A DNA stretch of 64,000 nucleotides from an uncultured Gammaproteobacteria bacterium (lineage in GTDB: Bacteria; Patescibacteriota; Patescibacteriia; Magasanikbacterales; UBA922): contig CAYMVY010000003.1 in the NCBI GenBank assembly GCA_964394405.1, forward strand, positions 29,224 to 93,223, read 5' to 3'. A program made the position numbers and the translations under genes. Shown in pieces: positions 4,343-48,722 of this stretch. The notes under the pieces are model-generated. The model saw only the letters and a list, made by a program, of their open reading frames with translations, was not told the DNA's origin and did no database searches. The number at the start of each line of letters is the position of its first letter. Position 1 is the first letter of the stretch.

Positions 4343-4379
4343 GTAAAATTGAAAGACCCCGCATCCGAAGATGCGGGGC
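4343..4379 (-). terminator. GC-rich hairpin terminator for the minus-strand island gene
   Basis: ccccgcatc-cgaa-gatgcgggg. On the minus strand it is followed by tctttcaatttt. Confidence 0.5.
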
Positions 4380-4409
4380 TTGTCTCCTTTGCAAGAGACT
4401 GTCGGACGA

Positions 4410-5177
4410 TCAGTGGTCGAGAGCCATCCGCTGGATGGCGCTCTCGATCCGCTGACGCTCGTCCGTGTGTGTCGGGAAGAGACTGCGCCAGTGAAGGACG
4501 ATCTTGTCCATCGCCTCCTGCTCGCGCGCCTCCTTGCTCGGTTGGTGGTAGTTGGCACCCACGATCAGCGGCACTCGCAGGTCGAGCATGGTGTAGCTGT
4601 ACTCACTCAGTGCGAGCATGCCGAGGAGGAAGTCGATGTCCTCCATGCCGCCGATCGCGTCACACCTGGCGTCGAACCCACCCATGAGCGGACCGAACGC
4701 CTCGATCCGGACCAGCATCCCAGTGTTACGCGGGTGCCGGTACGATCGTCCCAGGGAGACGATGTTCCCATCCTGTCGCCCCTCGAACGAGGTGCCGACC
4801 ACGCCGACCTTGGGGTCATTGATCGCGGCGTCGAGCATGGCCTCGAGGTGCTGTCTCGTGAACTGCGCCTCGACGCTGATGTTCATGACGAAGCGGAAAC
4901 GATTCCGCTCCCGTACGTTCGCCATGAACACGGCTTTGAAACCGATGTTCAGGGCGTTCGCCCACGAGTAGCCCTCGTGCATCTCGATGAGTTGCACGTG
5001 GCCGGCTTCGATGAACCCTCCGAGGAAGCCTCGGGTAGCGCCTCTGTCCTTGGTGGCGTCCGTAACGACGATGATCTTACCGATCCCCGCGTTACACAGG
5101 CTTGAGACCTGTTTTTGGACGAATTTGTTGTTGTAGGACCGCAGAATCGCGGCCGTCTGGTCCAGTCTGTCACGCAT
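4410..5177 (-). CDS. GT-A fold (family-2-like) glycosyltransferase, encoded in a strongly GC-rich island
   Basis: GT2-like motif order IIVVTDATKD .. GYSWANALNIG .. GGFDARCDAIGGMEDIDFLLG (compare GGFDE..EDxD). The region is visibly GC-rich, with long ORFs on both strands. The antisense ORF 4371..5105 looks like low-complexity junk. Confidence 0.5.
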   Translation of the reverse strand: MRDRLDQTAAILRSYNNKFVQKQVSSLCNAGIGKIIVVTDATKDRGATRGFLGGFIEAGHVQLIEMHEGYSWANALNIGFKAVFMANVRERNRFRFVMNISVEAQFTRQHLEAMLDAAINDPKVGVVGTSFEGRQDGNIVSLGRSYRHPRNTGMLVRIEAFGPLMGGFDARCDAIGGMEDIDFLLGMLALSEYSYTMLDLRVPLIVGANYHQPSKEAREQEAMDKIVLHWRSLFPTHTDERQRIESAIQRMALDH

Positions 5178-5347
5178 GATGTTTAGCGTGTTCCTTTGCC
5201 CCTCTCAAGGGCTTTTGGAAGTAAGATTCCGCGTCCTGTGGTACCCATTTGAGGTATGTTGGGACGATCCACCACACTATGATGGACGTCGAATAATATC
5301 ATATTTTAGCCATTTTGTCAAGTATACTCTTCGATATACGCTGTCTA

Positions 5348-5376
5348 TTGACATATTTCTCAGGCTTTGATATTAT
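5348..5376 (+). promoter_or_regulatory. Sigma70-like promoter TTGACA-17-TATTAT for rplJL
   Basis: ttgacatatttctcaggctttgatattat read directly. Confidence 0.5.
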
Positions 5377-5382
5377 CTCTTC

Positions 5383-5535
5383 ACCATAGACAGTAGCTTC
5401 CCGACAAAGTCGTGGATTAAATACGCTACCGAGGTAAACCAGTTCATCGTCAAGATGGACATCCCGACTAAGTCGGGATAAAGGTCGATATACCGTGTAC
5501 GTCTGTGGTTCAAAAAACCACATTTTTTATTTGTT
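5383..5535 (+). promoter_or_regulatory. Ribosomal protein L10 leader (autoregulatory leader with attenuator hairpin abutting the start codon)
   Basis: ~150-nt structured 5' UTR with hairpins aucccgac-uaa-gucgggau and ugugguu-caaaa-aaccaca followed by UUUUUUAUUUGUU immediately before the rplJ ATG. Position and architecture match the Firmicutes-type L10 leader. Confidence 0.45.
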
Positions 5536-6057
5536 ATGCCAAAAACTAGAGCGCAAAAAGAAGAAGCAATGCAGATTTTGGTCAATACCTTGAAACAGTC
5601 CAAGTCAGTCGTATTTGCGAACTTTCAAGGACTCAAGGTTTCTGAATCAGAAGAACTTCGACGATTGTGCCGAAAAGAAGGTGTTGAGTATGTTGCTGCC
5701 AAGAAAACTCTGGTAGCAAAAGCTCTCAAAGACGCTGGAATTGAAGCAAATCCAAAAAGTTTTGAAGGCGCAGTATCAGTGGTGTTTGGAATTCAGGATG
5801 AAGTTGCTCCTGCACAGATTCTTGCAAAATTCGCGAAAACGCATGAAGCAGTAAAACTTTTCGGCGGAATTCTCGAAGGTGCATTTATCGATGGCAAGAA
5901 AGTAACCGAACTCTCAAAACTTCCAAGCAAACAACAGCTTCTTGGTCAATTGGTGGGAACACTCAACGCTCCGGTATCCGGATTCGTGAATGTACTCGCT
6001 GGAAATCTCCGAGGACTGGTAACCGTACTTGGTGCGATCAAAGATGCAAAAGTTTAA
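5536..6057 (+). CDS. rplJ: 50S ribosomal protein L10
   Basis: MPKTRAQKEEAMQILVNTLKQSKSVVFANFQGLKV.. is typical of L10. 173 aa. Confidence 0.95.
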   Translation: MPKTRAQKEEAMQILVNTLKQSKSVVFANFQGLKVSESEELRRLCRKEGVEYVAAKKTLVAKALKDAGIEANPKSFEGAVSVVFGIQDEVAPAQILAKFAKTHEAVKLFGGILEGAFIDGKKVTELSKLPSKQQLLGQLVGTLNAPVSGFVNVLAGNLRGLVTVLGAIKDAKV

Positions 6058-6081
6058 TACTAGTTATTAATTAATGTATAT

Positions 6082-6489: not shown

Positions 6490-6502
6490 TTTATCCTTAG
6501 TC

Positions 6503-6535
6503 AAAAAACTCCCCGTTTAAAGCGGGGAGTTTTTG
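6503..6535 (+). terminator. Rho-independent terminator after rplL
   Basis: actccccg-tttaaag-cggggagt followed by TTTTTG. Confidence 0.7.
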
Positions 6536-6634
6536 TATATTGGAATCAATCTTTGTACTTCTATTTATTTTGACATTTATTGTATATTGAGAGTACTATA
6601 AAAATACTTTGTGTTATTAATTATTTATCTTTGT

Positions 6635-15000: not shown

Positions 15001-16002
15001 ATGAGAAAAGTCGGAATCGACCTCGGAACAACGAATATACTTGTCTATATCCCCAAACGGGGGATTGTGGTTAATGAACCATCTGTTGTTGCTATTTCAA
15101 AAGAAGATAAGAAAGTTCTTGCAGTGGGTATCGAAGCAAAAGAAATGATTGGGAGAACTCCTGATACAATTATTGCCGAGCGTCCTCTCAAAGATGGGGT
15201 TATTGCGAGTTATAAAACGACTGAAGCAATGCTTCGATATTTTATCAACAAAGCTCTTGGAGGAGTGCGTTTGTTTCGTCCTGAAGTCATGGTTGCTGTT
15301 CCTGCAGGTATTACTTCTACTGAGCGTCGAGCGGTAATTGACGCAGCTATGGCAGCTGGCGCAAAAGCAGCTTATATTATCAAAGAACCGATTGTGGCAG
15401 CGATTGGAGCAGATATACCGATTGGCTCAGCTTCGGGGCATATGATTGTAGATATTGGGGGAGGAACTGCAGAAATTGCAGTTATTTCTCTTGGAGGAAT
15501 TGTGTCTGTTGGATCAGTCCGTATCGGAGGAAATCGTTTTGATCAGTCAATTGCTGAATTTATTCGAAGGAAATATGGGCTCGCTATTGGAGAACAGAGT
15601 GCTGAAGAGGTAAAAATTCAGATTGGCAGCGCTATGTTTATGGATTCTCCTCTTACGATGGATGTCAAAGGTCGCGATATGGTGACTGGACTACCACGTA
15701 CGGTTACGGTTACCTCAGATGATACCACTGAAGCTTTGCAACATGACCTGGAGGGTTTGATTGAGTCGATTAAGGAGGTATTAAACCGCACACCTCCTGA
15801 GCTTTCTGCTGATGTTATGAATAAGGGTATTATTATGTCCGGAGGATCAAGTTTACTTCGGAATCTTGATGAGCTTATTGCTCAGGCAATTGGGGTTGCT
15901 GCGTATGTAGCTGAAGAGCCATTACTTTGTGTTGCAAAGGGAACGGGAATTGCACTTGAGAATTTGGATAATTATAAGAGATCTATAGTTTCAACAAGAT
16001 AA
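15001..16002 (+). CDS. mreB: Rod shape-determining protein MreB
   Basis: MRKVGIDLGTTNILVYI..NEPSVVAI..DIGGGTAEIAVISLGG: actin-like ATPase motifs. Confidence 0.9.
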   Translation: MRKVGIDLGTTNILVYIPKRGIVVNEPSVVAISKEDKKVLAVGIEAKEMIGRTPDTIIAERPLKDGVIASYKTTEAMLRYFINKALGGVRLFRPEVMVAVPAGITSTERRAVIDAAMAAGAKAAYIIKEPIVAAIGADIPIGSASGHMIVDIGGGTAEIAVISLGGIVSVGSVRIGGNRFDQSIAEFIRRKYGLAIGEQSAEEVKIQIGSAMFMDSPLTMDVKGRDMVTGLPRTVTVTSDDTTEALQHDLEGLIESIKEVLNRTPPELSADVMNKGIIMSGGSSLLRNLDELIAQAIGVAAYVAEEPLLCVAKGTGIALENLDNYKRSIVSTR

Positions 16003-16010
16003 GTACGTAA

Positions 16011-16106
16011 AATTATTCTAATTATACTAATTAGCCTAATTACTCTAAAAAATTAAATTCATTATTATTTAGGTTAATTATAATAATTAGAGTACTTAGA
16101 ATAATT
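16011..16106. repeat. Intergenic AT-rich element with ~22-bp terminal inverted repeats (family A, copy 1)
   Basis: aattattctaattatactaatt ... aattagagtacttagaataatt. Ends are reverse complements. The same element recurs at 31488-31598. Confidence 0.6.
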
Positions 16107-16112
16107 TTTATT

Positions 16113-17261
16113 ATGATTATTGGAATTGATGCATCATTAGCTTGTAGAGAGGAGCGTACGGGTGTTGAATCGTATGCTTTTTATATTATTTCACATCTTG
16201 CATCAGTTATTCCACCAGATGTTGAGGTGCGATTATACAGCGATCGGGCATTTCCTCAAGATTTTATACAACATATTCCGCAACATTGGAAACAAATTAT
16301 TTTATCATGGCCACCTCGATTTTTGTGGACACAGGTACGACTTAGTTTTGAATTATTATTACATCCCCCAGATATTTTTTTTACCCCCGGGCATGTAGAG
16401 CCTATCCTACATCCGGAGTGTACGGTAATGATGGTACATGATGTGGCTGCTTGGCGTATTCCTCGAGCATATTCGTGGTTTAATCGCGTCTATACTCTTC
16501 AGAAAACGCTTAATGCATATGCGACCAATCCAATCATGCTGGTTCCAACTGTTTTTACTAAAGAAGAATTAGAAAAATTAGCTCAAGAAAGAAATGTACA
16601 TAAAAAAACAGAAGTTGTGGTAGTACCTCACGGCTTTATTCCTTTTGCTGACAGTACTAGAGAATATTCAGACATTCTCAAAAAATTTTCTTTGAGTCCA
16701 TCTCAACACTATATACTTTCTATTGGTCGGGTAGAGTACAAAAAAAATATTGATACAATTATCCGTGCGTTTGAGCAATTAAAAAATTCCAGCCCTGCAT
16801 TTGGAAAATTGAAATTGGTTTTGGCAGGAAAACCGGGATATGGGTATGAACCTATTCAGAAAATGATTGAAAATAGTAGGTACAAGGATTACATTATACA
16901 AACAGGCTGGGTAACAGAAGTTGAGCGGTTTGCATTGCTCAAACATGCCCAATCACTTATATTTGTGAGTCGTTATGAAGGATTTGGTTTTCCTGTGCTC
17001 GAAGCTCTCTCTCTTGGGATTCCAGTGATTGCATCAAAAGGGTTGGGTTTGGAGGAAGTTGGTGGGGGACTCTGTACTTTTGTATCATCTGACGATGAAG
17101 GAGAGATTATGAATGCAATAGGGGCGTGTGCACACATGGATACTGCTGCTCGTGAGGTCCTGCAAAAAGAGGGACAACATCATGTCCATATGTTTTCTTG
17201 GTCTACAAGCGCTACATTAACCTACAACGCTCTGGTGAGAGCATATCAAAAATTGCAGTAA
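16113..17261 (+). CDS. Glycosyltransferase family 4 (GT-B fold)
   Basis: C-terminal VSRYEGFGFPVLEALSLGIPVIASK is the GT4 EX7E-type motif. Confidence 0.8.
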   Translation: MIIGIDASLACREERTGVESYAFYIISHLASVIPPDVEVRLYSDRAFPQDFIQHIPQHWKQIILSWPPRFLWTQVRLSFELLLHPPDIFFTPGHVEPILHPECTVMMVHDVAAWRIPRAYSWFNRVYTLQKTLNAYATNPIMLVPTVFTKEELEKLAQERNVHKKTEVVVVPHGFIPFADSTREYSDILKKFSLSPSQHYILSIGRVEYKKNIDTIIRAFEQLKNSSPAFGKLKLVLAGKPGYGYEPIQKMIENSRYKDYIIQTGWVTEVERFALLKHAQSLIFVSRYEGFGFPVLEALSLGIPVIASKGLGLEEVGGGLCTFVSSDDEGEIMNAIGACAHMDTAAREVLQKEGQHHVHMFSWSTSATLTYNALVRAYQKLQ

Positions 17262-31487: not shown

Positions 31488-31598
31488 AATTATTCTAATT
31501 ATACTAATTGACCTAATTATTCTAAAAATTTAGCAGTAAATTAATAGAATGTGTAGGTGTTTAGGTTAATTAGAATAATTAGAGTAATTAGAATAATT
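31488..31598. repeat. Intergenic TIR element, family A copy 2
   Basis: aattattctaattatactaattgacctaattattctaaaaa ... ttaggttaattagaataattagagtaattagaataatt. Ends match copy 1 nearly exactly and the interior diverges. Confidence 0.6.
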
Positions 31599-31606
31599 TG
31601 TTGTCT

Positions 31607-34638: not shown

Positions 34639-34730
34639 CGAGCCGTCTCCCGCCTCCGTCCTCCGATTTGGAGGACTACGGCGGGCAGGTAGCTCAGCTC
34701 CAGTGTCTGAGCAATAGTTTTGTAGTCAGC
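34639..34730 (+). pseudogene. Degenerate 5' half-copy of tRNA-Thr(UGU) interrupted by a 36-nt GC-rich hairpin
   Basis: agcgagccgucuc repeats the flank plus acceptor 5' strand of the intact gene. Then the hairpin cccgcc..ggaggac..ggcggg. Then uagcucagcu..gagcaa..uuuugua, a mutated D-arm/anticodon loop. No 3' half. Confidence 0.4.
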
Positions 34731-34733
34731 GAG

Positions 34734-34806
34734 CCGTCTTAGCTCAGCTGGTAGAGCAACGGTTTTGTAAACCGTCGGTCCGGGGTTCGAATCCCCGAGA
34801 CGGCTC
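34734..34806 (+). tRNA. tRNA-Thr (anticodon UGU)
   Basis: Acceptor GCCGUCU/AGACGGC perfect, D GCUC/GAGC, anticodon stem ACGGU/ACCGU with loop UUUGUAA, T-arm CGGGG-UUCGAAU-CCCCG. No CCA encoded. Confidence 0.85.
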
Positions 34807-34872
34807 GCTGACTATAATCAAGATAGTTAAACGGTTTTGCTTGTCCCGATGAGCGAAAGCGATATCGGGATA

Positions 34873-34911
34873 AACCGTCGGTCCGGGGTTCGAATCCCCG
34901 AGACGGCTCGT
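34873..34911 (+). repeat. Direct duplicate of the 3' half of tRNA-Thr(UGU), from anticodon-stem 3' strand through the acceptor 3' strand
   Basis: aaaccgtcggtccggggttcgaatccccgagacggctcg is identical to positions 34771-34808. The anticodon 5' part aaacggttttg lies at ~34830, separated by a 31-nt hairpin cttgtcccgatgagcgaaagcgatatcggga. Confidence 0.55.
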
Positions 34912-36836: not shown

Positions 36837-36860
36837 AAAAGCCACCCACGGGTGGCTTTT
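36837..36860 (+). terminator. Rho-independent terminator
   Basis: aaaagccaccc-acg-ggtggctttt. Confidence 0.6.
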
Positions 36861-39018: not shown

Positions 39019-39091
39019 GCCGTCATAGCTCAGTTGGTAGAGCGCGTCCATGGTAAGGACGAGGTCTCCAGTTCAATCCTGGATGACGGCT
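39019..39091 (+). tRNA. tRNA-Thr (anticodon GGU)
   Basis: Acceptor GCCGUCA/UGACGGC, anticodon stem CGUCC/GGACG with loop AUGGUAA, T-arm UCCAG-UUCAAUC-CUGGA. Confidence 0.85.
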
Positions 39092-39103
39092 CAAAAAAAT
39101 AAT

Positions 39104-39135
39104 CTGCCCGTAAGGGCGGGTTATTTTTTTGTTCG
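39104..39135 (+). terminator. Weak terminator hairpin with U-run after tRNA-Thr(GGU)
   Basis: ctgcccg-taag-ggcggg followed by ttattttttt. Confidence 0.45.
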
Positions 39136-39264
39136 TGAACAGTAGGATTGAACTGAGGGAAGGGTGAAACCGTAAGGTTTCACTGGGCTGAGGAAGAGTA
39201 TTGAGAAACCCGAAGGTTTCTCAAAGCGCACCCCGCCCTTCGCGAAGAGCGGGGGAGCAGTGAA

Positions 39265-39290
39265 ATCCCTGGATGACGGCTCAAAAAAAT
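39265..39290 (+). repeat. Direct repeat of the 3' end of tRNA-Thr(GGU) plus A-run, ~190 bp downstream of the gene
   Basis: aatccctggatgacggctcaaaaaaat versus the original aatcctggatgacggctcaaaaaaat at 39074-39100. It is followed by a second taag-loop terminator, tctccc-taagtt-gggaga followed by attttta. Confidence 0.5.
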
Positions 39291-40432: not shown

Positions 40433-40969
40433 TTAGGGCTGTTTTTCTTGAGTGGTTGTATGATTCCCATTTTTTTTCTTGAGGTTTTGCAATTCTTTCA
40501 TAATTTCCTGCATTTGTAATTCTACTTTTCCGATAATTCGCGCAGCGCGTTTGACCTCATCTTCTTGTTTATCATCATCATCCTGGATCTCATCAATATC
40601 TTTGGAAATATCTTTGACGTTTCCCTCAATATCCTCGACATCTTCCTGGATCTCATCAATATCTTTGGAAATATCTTTGACGTTTCCTTCGATGTCTTCG
40701 ATATCTTCTTGAAGTTCGTCGACGTCTTTTCCGACTTCTTCGATACTGGCACTGGTTTTGTTTATACTCATCTGGATGAAGATAGAGAGATAAATAGCTT
40801 CAAGAGACACTGCGGTGGTAAGTATGATAAGAATTTCTTCGGTTGATAATCCGAATAGTGACAAAAAGAAAACCCCTATAAATAAAATAGTATGCACAAT
40901 AATCGAACTTGGTGTACCAATCCATTGTGTGAATTTGTGAGCAACGGTGGTGGTGACCTTTTTTGACAT
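40433..40969 (-). CDS. DUF1003-family two-TM membrane protein with a duplicated acidic repeat
   Basis: Two TM helices near the N-terminus. QEDIEDIEGNVKDISKDIDEI duplicated. Confidence 0.55.
   Translation of the reverse strand: MSKKVTTTVAHKFTQWIGTPSSIIVHTILFIGVFFLSLFGLSTEEILIILTTAVSLEAIYLSIFIQMSINKTSASIEEVGKDVDELQEDIEDIEGNVKDISKDIDEIQEDVEDIEGNVKDISKDIDEIQDDDDKQEDEVKRAARIIGKVELQMQEIMKELQNLKKKNGNHTTTQEKQP
40581..40706. repeat. Perfect-to-near-perfect 2 x 63-bp tandem direct repeat inside the DUF1003 gene
   Basis: tcctggatctcatcaatatctttggaaatatctttgacgtttcc.. repeated twice, with 5 mismatches in the last 20 nt. Confidence 0.8.
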
Positions 40970-41072
40970 ACTATGATGATAAGAATACGGACACTAGTAT
41001 AGCATCTTTTTTCTTTATTTACAATCCTATAAGCCATGTTATACTAAGTATATATTTTTTAACTTAGTTTGT

Positions 41073-41486
41073 ATGTTTTATTATATATTACCGATTCTTG
41101 CTTCAGTACTATTTGCACAAATAGTTGGGATGTTGTGGTATTCACGGTTTTTGTTTGGTAAGGTGTGGATGAAGGCAGCGGGTATAACCCAGGAAAAAAT
41201 GGAAGTAGGTAAGAAAAACATGGGGGTATATATGGCCGGGGCTGCGCTGGGGACAGTGATTACAGCGATGGTACTACTTCTTACTATTCGAATGTTCGGG
41301 GAACCTAGTATGGCGCTTGGGATCAAAGTTGGCGCATTGGTTTGGCTCGGATATGTTATGGTTACCCAGTTTGATACCGTGCTCTGGGATGGGAAGTCTT
41401 TTACCTATTTTGCCATCAATACCCTACATTCATTGGTGCGTTTTGTGGGTATGGCTGCTATTCTTGGCGCATGGGCTGCATCCTAG
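41073..41486 (+). CDS. DUF1761-family small membrane protein
   Basis: VGMLWYSRFLFGKVWM motif and 4 predicted TM segments. Confidence 0.5.
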   Translation: MFYYILPILASVLFAQIVGMLWYSRFLFGKVWMKAAGITQEKMEVGKKNMGVYMAGAALGTVITAMVLLLTIRMFGEPSMALGIKVGALVWLGYVMVTQFDTVLWDGKSFTYFAINTLHSLVRFVGMAAILGAWAAS

Positions 41487-41496
41487 AGGGTTAAAC

Positions 41497-41525
41497 TTGA
41501 CAAATTTCGTTTATCCCTGTACTAT
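41497..41525 (+). promoter_or_regulatory. Promoter TTGACA-17-TACTAT for rpmG
   Basis: ttgacaaatttcgtttatccctgtactat. Confidence 0.45.
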
Positions 41526-41553
41526 TTGGGTACTTCATTTTTAGTTGAGTATT

Positions 41554-41721
41554 ATGGCATCCAAGTCAAAAGAACGACAAAATAAAATCAAACTTTCATG
41601 TACGGAGTGTAAAACAGTGACTTATTTTAAGAATAAGAATAAAGTTCTTAAAATACGACTCGAACTTTCAAAGTTTTGTAAGCACTGTAAAAAGCATACT
41701 CCACACAAAGAAACCAAATAA
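41554..41721 (+). CDS. rpmG: 50S ribosomal protein L33 (55 aa). Absent from the supplied ORF track because it is under 60 aa.
   Basis: [55 protein letters not shown]: two CxxC pairs and the L33 pattern. A hairpin-U terminator follows. Confidence 0.8.
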
Positions 41722-41786
41722 GATTTTAAGATTTTTAAAACAGCACCATGAACGGAGCTGTTTTAAAATAATATATCCTTTTAATT

Positions 41787-42644
41787 ATGAAATATTATTT
41801 TACCGCATTGTATAAAAGTTTGACTTCACCTAGTTGGCTTGCGTCGCAATCCAAGGCTACGACCAGAGCAGGAAAATTTTTTGTCATGGTGATGCTCGTA
41901 TTATCGCTCGGAGTCGGTGCTCATATTATCTATCGACAGATTCCGTCGATTGTACCCATTGTTGAACAGGGGATTACTGAACATGTGCCAGACTTCACTG
42001 CGAAGCTCACTGACGGAGAGCTCGTAGTGTCTGACCTTACTCAGCCGTATATTAATTATTTTACAGATGAGCAGAATAAAGAGTTTGTGATCGTGATTGA
42101 CACAGTGAGTACGGGTACTCTTGCGTTACCATCATTTTTTGTTTCTTCTACTGAAGGTGGGGTACTCATCACTCGAGATCGTATTGTTTCTCAAAATCTA
42201 GATGGTCAGGCAGATATTAATGAGGCATTTGATCAGGTTCCGAACCTTACCTTTTCACGCGCGCAGATTATTCAGACTTTGGAGGATATTGGGGGCAGAT
42301 ATCGACCTGCAATATTTGCTGTATTTGTGGCACTTTCATTTGCATTTTGGGGATTAGGGTTGTTGGTATTTATACTTTTGTTTTCAACTATTGCATTTGC
42401 TATTTATTCAGCTATTAGCAAGCAAGATAAGAAAGTGAGATATTCTTGGAAAGAAATATTTACTATGTCTCTCTTTGCATTCGGACTTCCCAAATTGATT
42501 GTTACTCTGGTGATGTTTGGATTTTATACCCCACTTCACTATGTGGTCACAGGAACAATGACCCTTGTCCTTATACGTACACTCAGTATTCCAAAGCAAG
42601 GTTCTGAACAGCAGAATGGTTCAGAACCACCGTTTACGGCTTAG
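41787..42644 (+). CDS. Hypothetical polytopic membrane protein (DUF1189-like, tentative)
   Basis: N-terminal TM, soluble ~120-aa segment, then 3-4 TM helices. No catalytic motif recognised. Confidence 0.4.
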   Translation: MKYYFTALYKSLTSPSWLASQSKATTRAGKFFVMVMLVLSLGVGAHIIYRQIPSIVPIVEQGITEHVPDFTAKLTDGELVVSDLTQPYINYFTDEQNKEFVIVIDTVSTGTLALPSFFVSSTEGGVLITRDRIVSQNLDGQADINEAFDQVPNLTFSRAQIIQTLEDIGGRYRPAIFAVFVALSFAFWGLGLLVFILLFSTIAFAIYSAISKQDKKVRYSWKEIFTMSLFAFGLPKLIVTLVMFGFYTPLHYVVTGTMTLVLIRTLSIPKQGSEQQNGSEPPFTA

Positions 42645-42747
42645 TTTTCCACACTTGAAGAGATAGTGCGTTTCGGTTATACTCTTTATTGGATTTTATA
42701 AAGAGCATGTTTAGTGCTCTTTGATCTATTTTGACCACTTACGAAGT

Positions 42748-43353
42748 ATGCTTACACTGTATGGATCTGCGAATTCAAGCGCTGGGAGATGTATCTGGTT
42801 GCTCGAAGAATTGAATGTGCCTTACGAACAAAAAGAGGTTGATATGAAAGCCAAGGAGCATAAGTCTCCCTGGTTTTTGAAACTTAATCCAAACGGAAAA
42901 GTTCCGGTGTTGGTTGATGATGATTTTGTCTTGTGGGAATCCTACGCGATCAATGAATATCTTGCTGCTAAGTATAAACCAGGATTGCTGGGACGAACTC
43001 CAGAAGAGAAAGCAAAAATTTCACAATGGAGCTGGTGGAGCGCGCTTCATGTACAAAAATATTTTGATGTGATTTTGTTGTTTGTGTTGTATAACGTTGG
43101 GACCAAAGAAGAAGCAATCGCTGCAGGAGAGGGTGTAAAGAAATACCTTGCGATTTTTGAAGCGTATATTCTCGATAAGGATTATGTGGTAGGAAAAGAG
43201 TTTACACTTGCTGATTTGAATCTTGGCTCAGTCATTAATATTGGGGTTGGACTCAATTATGATTTTACTCCATATCCTGCGATTATGTCATGGCTTGGAA
43301 GAATGAAAACAAGACCCGCGATGATTTCACTTCTTGCGAAATTAGGACGATAA
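42748..43353 (+). CDS. Glutathione S-transferase-fold protein
   Basis: N-terminal thioredoxin-like GST domain (LTLYGSANSSAGRCIWLLEELNVPYE..VPVLVDDDFVLWESYAINEYL) and alpha-helical C-domain. Confidence 0.7.
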   Translation: MLTLYGSANSSAGRCIWLLEELNVPYEQKEVDMKAKEHKSPWFLKLNPNGKVPVLVDDDFVLWESYAINEYLAAKYKPGLLGRTPEEKAKISQWSWWSALHVQKYFDVILLFVLYNVGTKEEAIAAGEGVKKYLAIFEAYILDKDYVVGKEFTLADLNLGSVINIGVGLNYDFTPYPAIMSWLGRMKTRPAMISLLAKLGR

Positions 43354-43524
43354 TGTTAATACAATTACGTTAGGTACTTTTTGCAACCAAAAAGTACCAA
43401 AAACTTTCGGGGGCGACAAAACTCGCCCCTTTAAGTTTATATAGTTATTTTGCATTTTTAGCTCGAACAGTTGTCGCCCCCGAACCCCCTTGGTAGGCTT
43501 TGTAGCCTGAGTAACCCTTTTTAC

Positions 43525-43553
43525 TTGACATTCTTATAATTTTCTTGTATATT
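43525..43553 (+). promoter_or_regulatory. Promoter TTGACA-17-TATATT for typA
   Basis: ttgacattcttataattttcttgtatatt. Confidence 0.5.
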
Positions 43554-43605
43554 ATCGACATATTTCCGCCTTGAGCGTAACAGCTCGGGGCGTTTTAAAT
43601 AAACT

Positions 43606-45393
43606 ATGGAAATTAGAAATATTGCAATTATCGCCCACGTAGACCACGGCAAGACCACCTTGACCGATGCTTTGCTTCGCGAATGTGGGATGATTACTGA
43701 AGAGGGACAGACTATGGACTCAAACACGCTTGAAAAAGAGCGTGGTATTACGATTTATGCAAAAAACACTTCTTTGTTCTATAAGGGAACCAAAGTGAAT
43801 ATCGTCGACACTCCAGGTCACGCGGACTTCGGATCTGAAGTAGAACGCGTACTTCGCTCGATTGATTCAGTGTTATTGGTTGTTGATGCGCAGGAAGGTC
43901 CTATGCCTCAGACCAAATTTGTATTGAAAAAATCTCTTGAGATTGGACTCAAGCCAATTGTGGTATTGAATAAAATCGATAAGCCGGCTGCTAGACCTCA
44001 GGAAGCGCATGATATGGTACTTGAATTATTCATGGATCTTGGAGCAAATGATGAACAGCTCAATTTTACGACCGTATATGCAATCGGCAAACTTGGCGTT
44101 GCAAAAAAGAATTTGACTGATGAATCAAAAAATCTCGAACCATTACTCGATACTATTTTGGAAAAAGTTCCAGCTGCTCCGCATGATATTGAAAAACCAC
44201 TTCGCATGCAACCATTCAATCTTGCATACGATAATTATTTGGGACGTCTTGCAGTAGGGCGTATTTATGAAGGAGTAGTGAAACAGGGTGATAAGGTATT
44301 TATTAAAAATCAGGACGGAACGACTCGAACAGGAAATATTACCAAAATTCAAAATTTTAAAGGCTTTGCTCGTGAAGAAGTTCAAACTGCTGAAGCAGGG
44401 GATATTGTGATGATTGCAGGAATTCCAGATATTTATATTGGTGAAACTATTTGTGCTAGCGCAGATCAGGAAGCATTGCCTGCGATCAAGGTTGACGATC
44501 CGACTATTTCTATGGATTTTTTGGTCAACAATTCTCCGTTTGCAGGAAAAGAAGGAACCTATGTTACGAGTAGACAGATTCGTGAGAGACTTGAAAAAGA
44601 ACTTGAAGTAAACGTAGGTCTTCATGTTGATTTTACCAATTCAGATCGATTCACTGTCTATGGTCGTGGAGAAATGCATATTGCAATTTTACTTGAAAAC
44701 ATGCGCCGTGAAGGATTCGAACTCCAGGTGTCTCAGCCAAAAGTAATTATCAAAGAAGAAAATGGAGAAAAAGTAGAACCATTTGAAGAAGTCACGATTG
44801 ATGTACCTGATGTGTACGTTGGAACGATTATTGAAAAAATGAGTAAACGAAAAGGAACGATGACGAATATGATGCCTGAGGGTGGACATACTCGTATTAT
44901 TTTTGAAATTCCGACTCGCGGACTTCTTGGTTATCGTGGAGAATTTGTGATGGATACTCGTGGAGAGGGAATCATGGCATCACGAGTGACGGGATTCCGA
45001 CCTCATGTGGGTGTGATTGAAAAGCGAGAAGTGGGAAGTATGGTTTCTATGCTTACTGGAAAAGCACTTGGGTATGCTCTCTGGAATCTCCAGGATCGAG
45101 GTACACTCTATATCGGACCAAATATTGAAATCTACGAAGGAATGGTTATTGGAAATGTTTCCAAAGGTCAAGATATGGCAGTAAATGCAATCAAAGGAAA
45201 GAAACTTACGAACATGCGCGCAAGCGGAAGTGACGATGCGATTATCCTCACCCCTCCATTTGAAATAACCCTTGAGCGTGGTATGGAAATGATGAATGAT
45301 GATGAATATCTCGAAATTACTCCACAAAGTATTAGACTTCGTAAGAAATATTTGACTGAGGTTGAGCGGAATAAGGCGAAAAGATCTAGCTGA
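43606..45393 (+). CDS. typA: Translational GTPase TypA/BipA
   Basis: IRNIAIIAHVDHGKTTL, DTPGHADF, NKIDK G-motifs. 595 aa with the BipA-specific C-terminal domain. Confidence 0.95.
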   Translation: MEIRNIAIIAHVDHGKTTLTDALLRECGMITEEGQTMDSNTLEKERGITIYAKNTSLFYKGTKVNIVDTPGHADFGSEVERVLRSIDSVLLVVDAQEGPMPQTKFVLKKSLEIGLKPIVVLNKIDKPAARPQEAHDMVLELFMDLGANDEQLNFTTVYAIGKLGVAKKNLTDESKNLEPLLDTILEKVPAAPHDIEKPLRMQPFNLAYDNYLGRLAVGRIYEGVVKQGDKVFIKNQDGTTRTGNITKIQNFKGFAREEVQTAEAGDIVMIAGIPDIYIGETICASADQEALPAIKVDDPTISMDFLVNNSPFAGKEGTYVTSRQIRERLEKELEVNVGLHVDFTNSDRFTVYGRGEMHIAILLENMRREGFELQVSQPKVIIKEENGEKVEPFEEVTIDVPDVYVGTIIEKMSKRKGTMTNMMPEGGHTRIIFEIPTRGLLGYRGEFVMDTRGEGIMASRVTGFRPHVGVIEKREVGSMVSMLTGKALGYALWNLQDRGTLYIGPNIEIYEGMVIGNVSKGQDMAVNAIKGKKLTNMRASGSDDAIILTPPFEITLERGMEMMNDDEYLEITPQSIRLRKKYLTEVERNKAKRSS

Positions 45394-45420
45394 TTAGTTT
45401 ACTGGTTTTCTAATCGGTTA

Positions 45421-45530
45421 AACTTAAAACTCAAATGTCAAAACGAAAAACTATAACTTAAATCTCAAAAATTTTGAGTTTTTAGTTCCAGTTTGAAGCT
45501 TTGAGTTTTACGTTTTGAGCTTATTTGAAT
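45421..45530. repeat. AT-rich palindromic intergenic element, family B copy 1 ('aaaactcaaa / tttgagtttt' units)
   Basis: ..aaaactcaaatgtcaaaacgaaaaactataacttaaatctcaaaaattttgagttttt... Its reverse complement matches 58713-58785. Confidence 0.5.
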
Positions 45531-45567
45531 ATCTCTAACTATTGGGCTATACTGTTCTTTATTCTAT

Positions 45568-45638
45568 GGGCGCGTGGTGAAATGGTGAGACTTTGGTCTC
45601 CAACCCCACCCTTCGCGAAGGGTGGGGCGATTCCCACT
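45568..45638 (+). pseudogene. Degenerate copy of tRNA-Trp: the first 19 nt are identical to the intact gene and the rest is decayed. It carries a GC palindromic hairpin.
   Basis: gggcgcgtggtgaaatggt is identical to 45917-45935. The anticodon loop CUCCAAC (still CCA) is retained but the stems are broken. The ccccaccctt-cgcg-aagggtgggg hairpin replaces the variable/T region. The 3' strand cannot pair with the acceptor. Confidence 0.5.
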
Positions 45639-45663
45639 ATACACTTGTTGATTAAGGGGGGGT

Positions 45664-45912
45664 ATGTATTATGTTTATCTGTTGAAAAGTTTCAAAGATA
45701 ATGGATTGTATATAGGATATACCCATGATTTACGTCGGAGATTTCAAGAACATACTGAAGGCGAGGTTGATTCTACAATGCATCGAAGGCCGTTAATACT
45801 TCTCTATTACGAAGCTTATGAGATATGTGAACGAGCACAAGAAAGAGAAAGAAAGTTGAAAAAATTTGGTTCCGCGTATACTGCACTTTTAAAACGTTTG
45901 AAAATTAAGTAA
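45664..45912 (+). CDS. Standalone GIY-YIG nuclease superfamily protein (UPF0213/YhbQ-like, 82 aa)
   Basis: YVYLLKSFKDNGLYIGYTHDLRRRFQEH..G...T.....P..LLYYE matches the GIY..YIG..R..H..E core. AT-rich (host-like) composition. The stop lies 5 nt before tRNA-Trp. Confidence 0.75.
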   Translation: MYYVYLLKSFKDNGLYIGYTHDLRRRFQEHTEGEVDSTMHRRPLILLYYEAYEICERAQERERKLKKFGSAYTALLKRLKIK

Positions 45913-45916
45913 ACAT

Positions 45917-45987
45917 GGGCGCGTGGTGAAATGGTATCACTAAGGTCTCCAAAACCTTCGTCGTAGGTTCGATTCCTACCGCGCCTG
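45917..45987 (+). tRNA. tRNA-Trp (anticodon CCA)
   Basis: Acceptor GGGCGCG/CGCGCCU (G1-U72), D GUGA/UCAC, anticodon stem AAGGU/ACCUU with loop CUCCAAA, T-arm GUAGG-UUCGAUU-CCUAC. Confidence 0.85.
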
Positions 45988-45994
45988 CTAAAAC

Positions 45995-46025
45995 AAAAAA
46001 TCACCATATACTGGTGATTTTTTGT
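45995..46025 (+). terminator. Rho-independent terminator after tRNA-Trp
   Basis: aaaaaatcacca-tatac-tggtgattttttg. Confidence 0.6.
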
Positions 46026-46115
46026 TGCTCGCCGACGGGTGTCCTGCGAGCAGGATGCTATTTCGTCGGCGGTGGTCTAGCGCGTGTTCCCACGGCTTCT
46101 CCTTGTGTTGTTGTC

Positions 46116-46439: not shown

Positions 46440-46488
46440 GCTTTCCTCCTGTTGCATTTGGCCGGATACATATACTAAAATTTAAAGA

Positions 46489-46511
46489 GTTTGTCAATAG
46501 TATTGACAAAC
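46489..46511. promoter_or_regulatory. Perfect 11-bp-arm palindrome overlapping the -35 of the helicase promoter (candidate operator)
   Basis: gtttgtcaata-g-tattgacaaac. A promoter TTGACA(46503)-17-TATACT is embedded in it. Confidence 0.4.
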
Positions 46512-46634
46512 CACCCTCTTTCTGCTATACTCGCATTTCATTCATTGGACGGTCATTTGACCGCCCTTCGACTCGAATCTTCTTGTTCCATAGTTATAGT
46601 GGCCCAGTAGACATCGGGTCACTATATTTATTTT

Positions 46635-48005
46635 ATGGAACACACCACAAAGGTGGGCTTTGAAAGTCTGCCTATTGCTCCAAAACTCTTAGAGATTTTG
46701 GCGCAGCACAAGTATACTCATCCGACTCCAATCCAATTGAAGTCTATTCCTGTTGCCCTCGAGGGTAAGGATATGGTGGGTATTGCACAGACTGGAACAG
46801 GGAAGACGCTTGCGTTTGGAATCCCCATGATTCAGCGTCTTGCAAAATTAAAAGCGCAAGGACTTGTAGTCGTGCCTACACGTGAGCTGGCGCTTCAAGT
46901 GGAAGAAACACTTCGAAAGATAGGGCATTCATTGGGACTCAAAACAGCTGTGATTATTGGGGGAGCCTCGATGTACACCCAGATTAATGAGCTTCGTCGC
47001 AATCCACATATTATTGTTGCGACTCCAGGACGGTTGGTAGATCATCTCGAACAAAAGACGGTGACGCTTGATCGTATACAGGTGGTAGTTCTTGATGAAG
47101 CTGATCGTATGTTTGATATTGGATTTGCGCCACAAATCAAGCGAATTTTATCGCTCACCCCAAAAGATCGTCAGACGCTTCTTTTTTCTGCGACCATGCC
47201 TGCTGAAATTGCAAAAATGGCATCACAGCATATGAAGTTGCCACTTCGGATCGAAGTTGCACCTCAAGGAACGAGTTCTGCAAATGTGGAACAGGAAATT
47301 TTTATTATCAGCAAAGAACAAAAATTACAATTACTTCAGAAATTACTTGATGACAACAAAGGAACAGTACTCGTATTTTCTCGAACCAAATTTGGCGCAA
47401 AGCGAATTGCAGCTTCACTTCGTCACATGAATCATACGGCTGTTGAAATTCACTCGAATCGAACGCTTGCGCAGAGAAAAGCAGCGCTTGCTGGATTCAA
47501 ATCAGGACAGTATCGAATTCTCGTCGCAACTGACATCGCTGCACGTGGAATCGATGTGACGGGAATTTCTCTCGTTATCAATTACGACCTTCCAGATAAT
47601 TCTGAAGATTACGTGCATCGAATTGGACGTACTGGTCGCGCTGGACTTACCGGGAAAGCAGTGTCATTTGCAACTCACCAAGAGCGAGCACAGATCAAAC
47701 AGATTGAACGATTGATCAAAAAAACTTTGCCAATTATTGGTCTTCCGACACTTCCTCCGAGAATTGAAGTACCTCGTGATTCAGGTCGCGAAGAACGATT
47801 TGAGGGAGGCTCTCGACGTAATTTTCGAGGAAATGATTCTCGAGAGCAACGAAATTTTGGTAGCGGTGGACAGCGACGTAGCCGGACGCATCGATATGGA
47901 AATAATCGTCCACGTCCTGAAGGGCAGAGCGACAATCAAGCACAGAAACCATCATTTCAGCGAACATTTCGCAGACCATCTCGACCTTCGTCCAATCAGT
48001 CATAA
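46635..48005 (+). CDS. DEAD-box ATP-dependent RNA helicase with an RG/RS-rich C-terminal tail
   Basis: Q-motif, AQTGTGKT, PTRELA, DEAD, SAT, HRIGRTGRAG motifs. Tail ..GGSRRNFRGNDSREQRNFGSGGQRRSR.. Confidence 0.9.
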   Translation: MEHTTKVGFESLPIAPKLLEILAQHKYTHPTPIQLKSIPVALEGKDMVGIAQTGTGKTLAFGIPMIQRLAKLKAQGLVVVPTRELALQVEETLRKIGHSLGLKTAVIIGGASMYTQINELRRNPHIIVATPGRLVDHLEQKTVTLDRIQVVVLDEADRMFDIGFAPQIKRILSLTPKDRQTLLFSATMPAEIAKMASQHMKLPLRIEVAPQGTSSANVEQEIFIISKEQKLQLLQKLLDDNKGTVLVFSRTKFGAKRIAASLRHMNHTAVEIHSNRTLAQRKAALAGFKSGQYRILVATDIAARGIDVTGISLVINYDLPDNSEDYVHRIGRTGRAGLTGKAVSFATHQERAQIKQIERLIKKTLPIIGLPTLPPRIEVPRDSGREERFEGGSRRNFRGNDSREQRNFGSGGQRRSRTHRYGNNRPRPEGQSDNQAQKPSFQRTFRRPSRPSSNQS

Positions 48006-48151
48006 TTAAGAGATTTTCATCTTGACTTTTAAGATACCGTACGGTACTCTGAGTCGTACTTTTTGTTGATTCTATTCTTTTGGGTTTACCTGAACTCAGA
48101 GGAGCTGGATCAAGAGATGATCGTAGCACAACTCAAAAGGAGAGCCCCCTC

Positions 48152-48622
48152 ATGCTGAATTCGATTCCTCTTTTCCTGATTCTGTTCATGACCTTCAACT
48201 GCTCCTCGATCCCTCGCAGTGAGTCGGACGGATGGGAGAATTACCTCGAACTCGTCCAGCGGGTCAAGTATCTCGAGTACGAGCACTACTTCACCACTCT
48301 CGGTCCCATGGCCGAGAAATACTTCCGTGATCCCAACTTTGGTTCTGGCATTTATGCCTACAAGGATGGTGAACTCCTCAAGCTCGGACCGAGTGATGAT
48401 CCCAATGAGATCGTGACGATCGCTGGACATCCGATCAATGGCTGGACGTACTGCGTCTATCGCAGTTTCTATTGGCGTAGAGCGATTGATGGGAGCTTCA
48501 AGCTGATCTCCCAAGAGATCATCGAAGAGGGGATGCCCGAGACGGGCACGTGCAATCCTGCGAACAGGTTTCGCAATCGGGACGACCGACGGTCCACCCC
48601 GAAGATCCGGATCCTGGATTAG
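48152..48622 (+). CDS. Hypothetical secreted/lipoprotein (156 aa) in GC-rich island 3, with an AAAGGAGAG Shine-Dalgarno
   Basis: Signal MLNSIPLFLILFMTFNCSS (Cys after a hydrophobic core). Mature part has no recognised domain. GC-rich, with ORFs open on both strands. Confidence 0.5.
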   Translation: MLNSIPLFLILFMTFNCSSIPRSESDGWENYLELVQRVKYLEYEHYFTTLGPMAEKYFRDPNFGSGIYAYKDGELLKLGPSDDPNEIVTIAGHPINGWTYCVYRSFYWRRAIDGSFKLISQEIIEEGMPETGTCNPANRFRNRDDRRSTPKIRILD

Positions 48623-48692
48623 TAGGACAATACACAACCCCGACGCCTCGTATCGACTGGTCCACGATGCGAATCGCGTCGGGAACAGTCTA

Positions 48693-48722
48693 CCCCGTCT
48701 TTCGCGAAAGACGGGGTTTTTG
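48693..48722 (+). terminator. GC-rich perfect palindromic terminator hairpin at the island 3 boundary
   Basis: ccccgtcttt-cgcg-aaagacgggg followed by ttttt. Confidence 0.6.

Follow-up and report, generated by a model that had tools for sequence, protein, structure and literature searches.

In the 64-kb stretch of DNA analyzed here (the window; contig CAYMVY010000003.1 of a Magasanikbacterales genome), a small gene for a GIY-YIG nuclease lies between a dead, partial copy of tRNA-Trp and the intact tRNA-Trp gene, and the middle of the dead copy is taken up by a palindrome of 24 nt, here called PAL (consensus CCCCGCY-NY-TCGCGA-RN-RGCGGGG). We consider it moderately probable that this arrangement represents a selfish nuclease cassette, which would install itself in tRNA transcription units through duplication of part of a tRNA, with PAL as its hairpin module. 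On the same explanation, and at the same joint level of confidence, four hairpins rich in guanine plus cytosine (GC), which a first-pass annotation of the window had pooled as marks of foreign or rearranged junctions, would be of two kinds: ordinary Rho-independent terminators and copies of PAL. The window has a GC content of about 40%, carries six tRNAs, and includes tsaD, rplJ/L, typA, and a DEAD-box helicase gene. Its features are collected in Table 1.

In the dead leader copy, tRNA positions 1-37 are reproduced from 45568 onward, positions 1-19 being identical to the real gene. After positions 1-19, the copy runs through a variant hairpin (GAGAC-TTTG-GTCTC), CAA, and PAL to a remnant of the T-loop and T-stem (CGATTCCCAC), and it lacks the 3′ acceptor strand. 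PAL stands in place of tRNA-Trp positions ~38-55 (AACCTTCGTCGTAGGTT) and is predicted to fold with a ΔG of -19.5 kcal/mol (z -3.4). The first-pass annotation had put this hairpin inside a pseudo-tRNA-Trp before the GIY-YIG gene, and both the sequence and the tRNA alignment agree with that placement. The encoded protein matches PF01541 with 50.9 bits, against a cut-off of 22.6, and its GIY-YIG catalytic residues are conserved, with Y3, Y5, Y16, G18, R26, H30, and E50 invariant in an alignment of 16 homologues. The nearest solved structures are those of the UPF0213 proteins 1ywl (E 5e-5) and 1zg2 (E 1e-4). An interpretation of the locus as a tRNA-Trp split by a group I or other intron was rejected, as there is no Rfam intron match and a complete tRNA follows the open reading frame (ORF). 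Only tRNAs passed the Rfam gathering threshold; at E<=1, the region from 34.6 to 49 kb gave only sub-threshold matches at chance level, and no intron or transfer-messenger RNA (tmRNA).

The history of the locus was read from relatives found in a typA-anchored scan, one genome per species, which returned Candidatus Magasanikbacteria metagenome-assembled genomes and more distant Patescibacteria. The amino acid identity of their TypA to that of the window is 99% for L030, 97% for L002 and L003, 96-97% for L009 and L071, 95% for L004, 94% for L005, 92% for L006, and 91% for L007, and nucleotide synteny is good over 30-56 kb, so that each site can be compared with its orthologous position. The window, L030, L007, and L071 carry the tRNA-Trp cassette. 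L002-L005 lack it; in these, typA is followed by the promoter and tRNA-Trp with nothing between them, and the flanks are homologous up to the tRNA copies. The promoter that precedes the pseudo-copy in L030 is the one found before the plain tRNA gene of L003, and hence the dead copy stands where the tRNA was ancestrally located. When the four filled alleles are aligned, the 40 nt at the start of the pseudo-tRNA, including the GAGAC-TTTG-GTCTC hairpin, are identical and the intact tRNA is nearly so, and the interior of the alignment has diverged. In L071, typA is 96-97% identical to that of the window, the identity of the GIY-YIG gene product is only 54%, and the hairpin in the position of PAL has another sequence (CCCGGCCTGGCCGGG). 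By this alignment, conserved tRNA-derived flanks enclose a cassette that has been exchanged, or turned over. An extra hairpin-bearing copy, namely, a 3′ partial tRNA-Trp after the intact gene, is present in L071 and L030. In L030, this copy bears PAL, lies at the far end of a GC-rich islet of ~780 bp, and looks attR-like, and in L083 a truncated GIY ORF is found between tRNA-Trp and a PAL-bearing 3′ partial copy. The only public contig with an identical typA, the Logan contig L001 (window 40658-45455), ends 60 nt after typA, just before the pseudo-tRNA and PAL, as would be expected if the duplicated tRNA sequence had broken the assembly.

Table 1 Features of the window discussed in the text, and hairpins beside GIY-YIG genes on the contigs of homologues
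Locus	Position	Strand	Feature	Sequence and remarks
Window	4225-4329	+	tRNA-Glu(UUC), 4225-4297	Own separate terminator at 4304-4329; GC-rich ORF directly after
Window	4357-4378	-	Intrinsic terminator of the minus-strand GC-rich ORF 4410-5177	CCCCGCATC-CGAA-GATGCGGGG; 9-bp stem, loop CGAA (perfect-stem scan); not of the PAL family; ΔG -22.1 kcal/mol, z -4.0
Window	34642-34699	+	5′ partial copy of tRNA-Thr(UGU)	GCCGTCT, compound GC-rich hairpin 34649-34685, then TAGCTCAGCT
Window	34733-34806	+	tRNA-Thr(UGU), intact	
Window	34830-34909	+	3′ partial copy of tRNA-Thr(UGU)	AACGGTTTTG, with hairpin CCCGATGAGCGAAAGCGATATCGGG (34845-34869) in the anticodon loop
Window	39019-39092	+	tRNA-Thr(GGU), intact	
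Window	39093-39289	+	Insert of ~190 nt after tRNA-Thr(GGU)	Terminator 39104-39130, two GAAACC..GGTTTC hairpins, PAL, tRNA 3′ repeat
Window	39231-39254		PAL copy	CCCCGCCCTTCGCGAAGAGCGGGG; single C/A mismatch
Window	45568-45637	+	Pseudo-tRNA-Trp leader	Behind the ancestral tRNA promoter
Window	45604-45627		PAL copy	CCCCACCCTTCGCGAAGGGTGGGG; perfect 24-nt palindrome
Window	45664-45912	+	Gene for stand-alone GIY-YIG nuclease, 82 aa	Stop 4 nt before tRNA-Trp
Window	45917-45988	+	tRNA-Trp(CCA), intact	Terminator at about 45995-46025
Window	48010-48690	+	GC-rich cassette	Promoter-like TTGACT, leader hairpin, lipoprotein-like ORF from ATG 48152, 3′ stem CCCCGACGC...GCGTCGGG
Window	48692-48717		Hairpin	ACCCCGTCTTTCGCGAAAGACGGGGT; perfect 26-nt palindrome, then TTTTTG
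Window	48692-48722	+	Intrinsic terminator of convergent genes	PAL-type stem, then TTTTT; orthologous to the terminators of L005 and L004
L193			Hairpin in anticodon-loop-to-T-loop position	CCCCGCCCTTCGCGAAGGGCGGGA
L194			Hairpin in anticodon-loop-to-T-loop position	TCCCGCCTCTCGCGAGAGGCGGGG
L195			Hairpin in anticodon-loop-to-T-loop position	CCCCGCCGCTCGCGAGCGGCGGGG; tandem array
L200			Hairpin in anticodon-loop-to-T-loop position	CCCCGCTCTTCGCGAAGGGCGGGG
L201			Hairpin in anticodon loop of dead copy	TCCA on each side
L204			Hairpin in D-loop of dead copy	GTA on each side

The same architecture recurs across lineages of the candidate phyla radiation (CPR), also in loci chosen by the protein and not by PAL. 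We found about 400 small homologues of the GIY-YIG protein, and all those with an organism name belong to CPR bacteria. The contigs of seven homologues served as an independent sample: six of them directly adjoin an intact tRNA-Trp, each with a PAL-type hairpin in a partial tRNA-Trp copy (Table 1). The seventh is located between inverted repeats in an apparent T-box leader. There (L197/L198, 1270-1900), the repeats are CCCCTCACAACTT...AAGTTGTGGGGGG, and the ORF lies just upstream of a T-box-like GGGTGGCACCGCG motif and of an Asp/Asn-tRNA synthetase gene; it looks as if the ORF had been inserted into a leader hairpin. In the typA set, the GIY-YIG gene of L037 abuts tRNA-Tyr, and a 5′ pseudo-half carries GCCCCGCCaagGCGGGGT in its D-loop. 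Tandem arrays were seen as well: at 1812-2150 in L195, at least five units follow tRNA-Trp, each consisting of a spacer and a partial tRNA-Trp with a PAL variant (CACCGGCCTCCAA-CCCCGCCGCTCGCGAGCGGCGGGG-CGATTCCCTCATCCCGTGC), and L074 and L114 contain similar arrays. A more distant GIY-YIG ORF (L057, 3205-3640) is flanked by GTCATCC...GGGATC hairpin repeats.

To describe PAL as a family, metagenomes were scanned with the pattern CCCCRYCYTTCGCGAARGRYGGGG, which returned at least 120 stretches in contigs of 24-69% GC; all counts of metagenome PAL sites given here are among the matches listed. The exact CCCCGCCCTTCGCGAAGGGCGGGG is found at 62 of the 105 non-redundant sites and CCCCGCCTTTCGCGAAAGGCGGGG at 22 of them. 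About 20 loci share the architecture of the window, with a GIY-YIG ORF (50-68% identical) ~45 nt after PAL and tRNA-Trp at ~+300. At other loci, PAL lies in a 3′ partial copy just past an intact tRNA-Trp, tRNA-Cys, or tRNA-Ile, and it also occurs just past intact tRNA-Ala, tRNA-Met, and tRNA-Thr genes, where no partial copy could be made out. GIY-YIG matches number 22 per 0.79 Mb of PAL-anchored DNA, all beside PAL, compared with 7 per 1.15 Mb of typA-anchored DNA. A tRNA is present within 150 nt of 13 of the 125 PAL sites, compared with 3.2 for random positions, and within 400 nt of 29, compared with 6.7 (at most 15 in 1000 trials), which is an enrichment of about 4-fold. The first-pass annotation had suggested a test for enrichment beside tRNAs, and the metagenome sample shows such an enrichment. 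The opposite expectation, that of a generic terminator family with no tie to tRNA duplications, holds by half, because the motif is also found at terminator positions with A-runs and T-runs (22 of the 105 non-redundant sites), while the link to tRNA duplications is real.

The hairpin itself is maintained. Across 15 PAL variants, 96% of the cells are paired, and four pairs show compensatory double changes (14 cells), a score that none of 500 shuffles reached. PAL is thus conserved in pairing, and it is conserved in primary sequence too, both in the arms and in the TCGCGA center. The strand bias of G·U versus C·A mismatches was inspected by eye; both occur on the sense strand, which is uninformative as to selection at the RNA or the DNA level. 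At 25 of the 105 sites, the flanks add at least 4 bp of complementarity, with ~0.4 such sites expected. Rfam analysis of 20 PAL loci showed that, in a bacterial RNase P RNA (L172, 1500-1806), the P3 hairpin is an exact PAL and that another copy lies inside a group I intron (L148, 3403-3603), from which it follows that PAL can occupy the hairpin tips of functional RNAs. In the same 20 loci, PAL was also seen near rRNA, RNase P, and L10-leader genes. The GST-typA spacer of L006 contains PAL; in its place, the window and L003 have another terminator plus ~50 nt. In several metagenome loci (L087, L117, L123, and L166), the GTCATCCTGA..TCAGGATGAC motif, seen with the GIY-YIG ORF of L057, brackets PAL as well.

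The four hairpins of the window can be examined against this background. Direct reading of the letters confirmed that all of them exist, and the pattern CCCCN5-7CGNNAN5-7GGGG, by which they had been described, matches three window sites, with 0.03 expected from shuffles and a maximum of one in any shuffle. Their description as near-identical applies to the three sites with the TTCGCGAA core, which a repeat search of the window grouped into one family with 80-100% identity (39231, 45604, and 48692; repeat D9), and is overstated for the hairpin at 4357, which has only the CCCCGC at the beginning of its stem in common with them and not this core. All four are predicted to fold stably as RNA (ΔG -17.6 to -22.1 kcal/mol, z -2.1 to -4.0). 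A U-tract 3′ of the stem is present at 4357-4378 on the minus strand and at 48692-48717 on the plus strand (UUUUUG), and is absent after the hairpins at 39231 (next letters GAGCAGUG) and 45604 (next letters CGAUUCCC). The lesson is that look-alike GC hairpins of an AT-rich genome should not be pooled, as two of the four do plain terminator work.

The hairpin at 4357-4378 has no relation to the other three and is an ordinary terminator. Its minus-strand sequence is CCCCGCAUC-UUCG-GAUGCGGGG followed by UCUUUCAAUUUUA, with a C(UUCG)G tetraloop, and the hairpin is found 31 nt past the stop codon of an ORF whose product has a weak match to Glycos_transf_2 (glycosyltransferase-2, Pfam). The proposal that it marks a foreign or rearranged junction is not supported: it is a different hairpin and a plain terminator. 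A search for an attR-like partial copy of tRNA-Glu at the edge of this GC-rich island gave only a weak best match (11/12 nt at ~5499-5510, score 24), and this candidate was rejected.

The hairpin at 48692 separates the DEAD-box helicase and a GC-rich cassette from the convergent minus-strand gene 48732-49706. In L005, the helicase stop is directly followed by tctACCCCGCATCAgaaaTGATGCGGGGTttttgtt and the convergent gene, with no GC-rich ORF, and L004 has CCTACACTAgaaaTAGTGTGGGGttttt at the orthologous place. Because the cassette-less L005 has a terminator at the same place, this hairpin is a conserved backbone terminator and not a part of the cassette. The flanks tct-ACCCCG...CGGGGT-ttttgtt are common to the window, L004, and L005, and the inner stem differs in each genome; only this inner stem is of the shared TTCGCGAA type in the window. 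The GC-rich cassette at 48010-48690 has conserved ends of its own, among which the palindrome is not found. The claim that two of the hairpins mark island ends thus holds only by half, the hairpin at 48692 being part of the backbone, and the third island does not hold together as one foreign block, because the DEAD-box helicase within it is native and conserved in all relatives. The element linked to the palindrome is the small GIY-YIG nuclease cassette and not the GC-rich genes. With regard to the slot after the helicase, the cassette of L004 (14120-14830) has the leader (TTGACT, hairpin, "..agaggagctggatcaa") and the 3′ stem (CCCCGACGC...GCGTCGGGAACAGT) in common with that of the window, and the two ORFs are unrelated (MLNSIPLFLILFMTFNCSS.. 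in the window, MIKFILVLFACILASCGS.. in L004), both being GC-rich and lipoprotein-like; the slot is empty in L005. The lipoprotein-like ORF of the window had no Pfam match.

Partial tRNA copies also flank the tRNA-Thr genes of the window. After tRNA-Thr(GGU), the last ~25 nt of the tRNA and an A7 run are repeated at 39265-39289, and PAL is found 10 nt upstream of this repeat, between a D-stem-like AAGCGC and a T-arm/acceptor remnant; its earlier placement inside an insert after this tRNA was correct according to the sequence and the tRNA alignment. Only L030 has the insert of ~190 nt in common with the window, with CCCCGCCCTTCGCGCAGGGCGGGG as its palindrome; L004, L005, and L007 lack it. In the search of this insert for tmRNA or another known structured RNA, nothing exceeded chance (ARAGORN, Rfam). 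At tRNA-Thr(UGU), the hairpin at 34649-34685 in the upstream copy comes after tRNA position 7 and has outer arms CCCGCC/GGCGGG and an inner stem at 34658-34676 (perfect-stem scan), and the downstream copy (repeat D8, 94%; E 1.5e-17) ends in 39 nt identical to positions 36-74 of the tRNA. The downstream unit of 103 bp is missing in L004, L005, and L007. Both hairpins that interrupt the tRNA-Thr(UGU) copies are GC-rich but are not PAL. L194 carries a GIY-YIG gene in the tRNA-Thr(UGU)/tRNA-Tyr spacer, the same spot as this 103-bp partial duplication. The idea of rearranged junctions and att-like sites is thus borne out in part: the hairpins at 39231 and 45604 lie in partial tRNA duplications that are present or absent among close relatives, and in L030 the palindrome is in the attR-like 3′ copy of tRNA-Trp; no integrase or recombinase was found near any of the sites. 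Inverted fragments of tRNA 3′ ends were noticed right after the terminators of tRNA-Trp and tRNA-Thr, in L030 (9085-9115), L004 (12068-12098), and the window (39146-39157). One example is GGAATCGAAC, the reverse complement of GTTCGATTCC; the window has AGGATTGAACTG, which corresponds to the T-arm of tRNA-Thr(GGU) in reverse complement. These fragments suggest older insertions in the opposite orientation.

The following pathway would account for the nuclease cassette. The cassette would enter a tRNA gene, here tRNA-Trp, with duplication of part of the tRNA, so that one copy stays intact and functional. The redundant copy would be kept as a leader (5′ type) or a trailer (3′ type), its middle replaced or interrupted by PAL. 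In the window, the palindrome at 45604-45627 would be the PAL of a live cassette, made of the ancestral promoter, pseudo-tRNA-Trp(1-37), PAL, the T-arm remnant, the GIY-YIG gene, and the intact tRNA-Trp; the one at 39231-39254 would belong to a 3′-type remnant after tRNA-Thr(GGU) that no longer carries the gene, and at 48693 the PAL-type stem would have taken over a pre-existing terminator hairpin. The nuclease gene would be transcribed from the tRNA promoter, its mRNA being freed by processing at the 5′ end of the tRNA, and the cassette would spread by nuclease-stimulated gene conversion, with the tRNA-derived flanks as homology arms. As for PAL, it would provide a stable hairpin irrespective of its orientation and keep the dead copy from folding, or being recognized, as a tRNA. 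It might also remove the variable/T-arm region, the type of site that T4 SegB recognizes, shorten the direct repeat able to delete the cassette, and cap the short mRNA. Finally, PAL could be copied to other hairpin tips, such as those of terminators or of RNase P P3.

Several points weigh against this account of a selfish tRNA-nested cassette. The metagenome sample was chosen by the PAL pattern itself, and a nearby tRNA or GIY-YIG gene is missing at ~75% of its PAL sites, which shows that PAL occurs outside the cassette as well. The position of PAL in the dead copy varies (D-loop, anticodon loop, or replacement of positions 38-55), which makes a single fixed role hard to pin down. Genomes that have the cassette and genomes that lack it do not differ in the sequence of the intact tRNA-Trp; a target wholly within the tRNA would thus be self-destructive, and the target must span the junction or be a structure. 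The 82-aa protein consists of the catalytic domain throughout, without the DNA-binding module typical of classical GIY-YIG homing endonucleases. The tRNA-Thr inserts of the window carry no trace of a GIY-YIG ORF: a six-frame profile search at tRNA-Thr(GGU), at both flanks of tRNA-Thr(UGU), downstream of tRNA-Glu and tRNA-Trp, and at the 48.6-kb terminator matched only the positive control. Their interpretation as scars of the cassette would follow from likeness to L083, L200, and L194. Lastly, co-transcription, nuclease activity, and homing are all steps that we infer.

PAL could instead be an autonomous mobile palindrome, comparable to repetitive extragenic palindromic (REP) sequences or miniature inverted-repeat transposable elements, moved in trans by the GIY-YIG nuclease as REP sequences are by the REP-associated tyrosine transposase (RAYT). 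Its targets would be hairpin loops of DNA or RNA, such as tRNA loops, terminators, and RNase P P3, with the tRNA-Trp cassette as the "master" and the other PAL copies as offspring. The identical 24-mer across very different contexts and lineages speaks for this possibility, as do the conservation of the arms and the TCGCGA center beyond pairing, the replacement of other hairpins by PAL at orthologous positions, the 25 of 105 sites at the tip of a longer stem, the tandem arrays in L195 and L074, and the constant company of PAL and the nuclease gene in the tRNA modules. Moreover, PAL forms an inverted repeat by itself, and clean insertions in pseudo-tRNA loops are surrounded by short duplications, TCCA in L142, L174, and L201 and GTA in L204. 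However, these amount to just two independent duplications that resemble target-site duplications, and at the tRNA-Trp junction seen most often, a segment has been replaced and nothing is duplicated. Transposition of DNA is not known for any GIY-YIG enzyme, the window holds only three copies in 64 kb, and no conserved tetranucleotide like the GTAG of REP was seen in the PAL flanks. Taken together, we regard an autonomous PAL as rather unlikely. A broader version, which we hold only tentatively and judge a little less doubtful, is that PAL and the minimal GIY-YIG nuclease form an unrecognized nuclease-plus-hairpin mobile system of CPR bacteria, parallel in function to REP/RAYT but with a GIY-YIG fold. 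Its enzyme, a catalytic domain only, would read structure (the loops of hairpins and cloverleaves) rather than sequence, and the system would nest beside essential tRNAs by partial duplication and seed PAL into tRNA pseudo-copies, terminators, RNase P P3, T-box leaders, and group I introns.

Another possibility is that each of the four hairpins arose on its own as a Rho-independent terminator or a hairpin for RNA stability, that they are alike because CCCCGC stems with stable loops are favored in an AT-rich genome, and that no mobile element is involved. It has in its favor that two of the four are textbook terminators, that similar GC stems occur at the window terminators 6504-6534, 36837-36860, and 43410-43429, that stems change freely between orthologous terminators, and that PAL in RNase P RNA is a plain structural hairpin; the A/T runs at 22 of the 105 metagenome sites also fit. 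It is made very improbable by the hairpins at 39231 and 45604, which have no U-tract and lie within tRNA-like sequence, by the strong link of PAL to partial tRNA copies and GIY-YIG genes, and by the conservation of a palindromic TCGCGA center that a terminator loop does not need. Convergence is also implausible given the presence of the same 24-mer in at least 120 contigs, compared with about one to a few by chance in the entire collection (estimated from the pattern length). We give equally little credence to the view of the first-pass annotation, in which the hairpins are attL/attR parts of integrase-driven, tRNA-targeting islands, with GC-rich genes as cargo and gene-less sites as deletion scars. 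The tRNA 3′ direct repeats that bound the inserts at tRNA-Thr(GGU) (~25 nt) and tRNA-Thr(UGU) (39 nt), the GC-rich islet of L030 between tRNA-Trp and its PAL-bearing partial copy, and the hot spot downstream of tRNA-Trp, where every relative has a different region, are all what this view would lead one to expect. Nevertheless, a protein family search detected no integrase or recombinase among the ORFs of 32.9-51 kb or around tRNA-Glu, and none was noticed near the hairpins of related loci read by eye, on which no recombinase search was run. The inserts measure just 100-800 bp, and at tRNA-Trp the duplicated segment is the 5′ part, placed in front of the gene, unlike the trace left by integrases that target 3′ ends. 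In addition, the hairpins at 48692 and 4357 are not at repeat-flanked junctions, and the conserved ends of the GC-rich cassette at 48010-48690 exclude the palindrome. An att reading of the integrase type fails because of the missing recombinase, the tiny inserts, and the 5′-part duplications.

The nuclease cassette has precedents among known systems. Short GC-rich palindromes dispersed in the intergenic DNA of AT-rich genomes include REP/RAYT, mitochondrial GC clusters, and double-hairpin elements; REP-type palindromes are often found at gene ends, where they act as terminators or stabilizers, and have a dedicated nuclease gene flanked by repeats. Unlike in REP/RAYT, the enzyme here is a GIY-YIG protein and not an HUH/Y1 (IS200/IS605-like) transposase, and PAL is a perfect 24-nt palindrome with a TCGCGA center and no flanking GTAG. 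In integrative islands that target tRNAs, the tRNA 3′ end is repeated beyond the insert (attL/attR), and tRNA loci are hot spots for variable DNA. The differences here are the absence of an integrase, the tiny size of the inserts, the additional 5′-part duplications, and a palindrome that replaces the mid-segment of the repeated tRNA. The C-terminal duplications of fungal mitochondrial atp6 and cob, which involve homing-endonuclease ORFs, are similar in that an essential gene is kept by part-duplication and a redundant fragment stays beside the ORF. In Allomyces, the endonuclease ORF atp6-ORF360 reportedly brought a replacement gene piece, leaving the displaced piece as a pseudo-copy. In contrast to the fungal cases, a tRNA gene is targeted here, mostly in its 5′ part, and the fragment is not simply decaying, since its 5′ 40 nt are identical in four genomes and a palindrome sits mid-copy. 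UPF0213/YhbQ-type proteins (1ywl, 1zg2) are, like the window protein, single GIY-YIG domains, of ~80-110 aa; the similarity is low, and they have no known tRNA or palindrome context.

Phage T4 offers another parallel: the gene for SegB, a GIY-YIG homing endonuclease, lies in a tRNA cluster, and the T-psi-C stem-loop motif is part of the 27-bp site of SegB (PMC2330249). SegB and the window cassette are alike in that a GIY-YIG gene lies among or next to tRNA genes and is present or absent between close relatives (PMC2330249), and the T-psi-C motif of the SegB site is the region that PAL removes from the dead tRNA copies of the window. SegB, however, is a multi-domain phage protein with a defined 27-bp site, whereas the window protein is an 82-aa catalytic domain only, encoded on a bacterial chromosome; the partial tRNA duplication and conserved palindrome of the window cassette are not described for SegB. 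Within CPR bacteria, GIY-YIG ORFs have been found in insertions of rRNA genes that are not group I or group II introns (PMC11270868). The rRNA-gene insertions overall are mostly at the top or base of stem-loops, and those that encode GIY-YIG proteins were judged to be sparse and not to spread by homing (PMC11270868). They share with the window cassette the host group, the protein superfamily, and a location in genes for structured RNAs; a tRNA-linked module with a pseudo-tRNA and PAL is not described in that study, whose insertions are in rRNA genes (PMC11270868). A full-text literature search found only precedents, and no description of a PAL-like palindrome or of a GIY-YIG/pseudo-tRNA module in CPR bacteria. 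The module of PAL and GIY-YIG/pseudo-tRNA therefore appears to be undescribed, although it combines known kinds of elements, namely, free-standing homing-endonuclease cassettes and REP-like palindromes.

From a biological perspective, these observations suggest that tRNA genes are also colonized in CPR bacteria, by a very small selfish unit that consists of a nuclease of 82 aa, a reused tRNA segment, and a palindrome of 24 nt and that keeps the essential tRNA working. The genomes of CPR/Patescibacteria are ~1 Mb and highly streamlined, although insertions in their rRNA genes are well known. If the nested-cassette account is true, the module would be a system in which to study target recognition, whether of structure or of sequence, by a GIY-YIG catalytic domain that has no DNA-binding domain attached. 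It would also account for tRNA loci as hot spots of partial duplications and small variable cassettes, and one conserved hairpin would be usable as a terminator, as an RNA helix cap, and as the end of a mobile element. PAL beside partial tRNA copies would then serve as an annotation signature for such elements, which seem to cause assembly breaks.

Other repeats and hairpins were noticed in the window. AT-rich arrays of AATTAnnCT repeats spaced by 9 nt are found at 16002-16120 and 31488-31599, upstream of ORFs that start at 16113 and 31598, and are 91-95% identical between the two loci (repeats D1 and D11); they may be shared regulatory or promoter arrays. At 40576-40701, a 63-nt tandem duplication (92% identical) lies in a minus-strand ORF with a coiled-coil-like product (40433-40969). 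Finally, a hairpin at 43567-43592 (CGCCTTGAGCGTAACAGCTCGGGGCG and TTTTAAATAA) directly precedes the start codon of typA and is kept in most close relatives; it may be a typA leader or attenuator.

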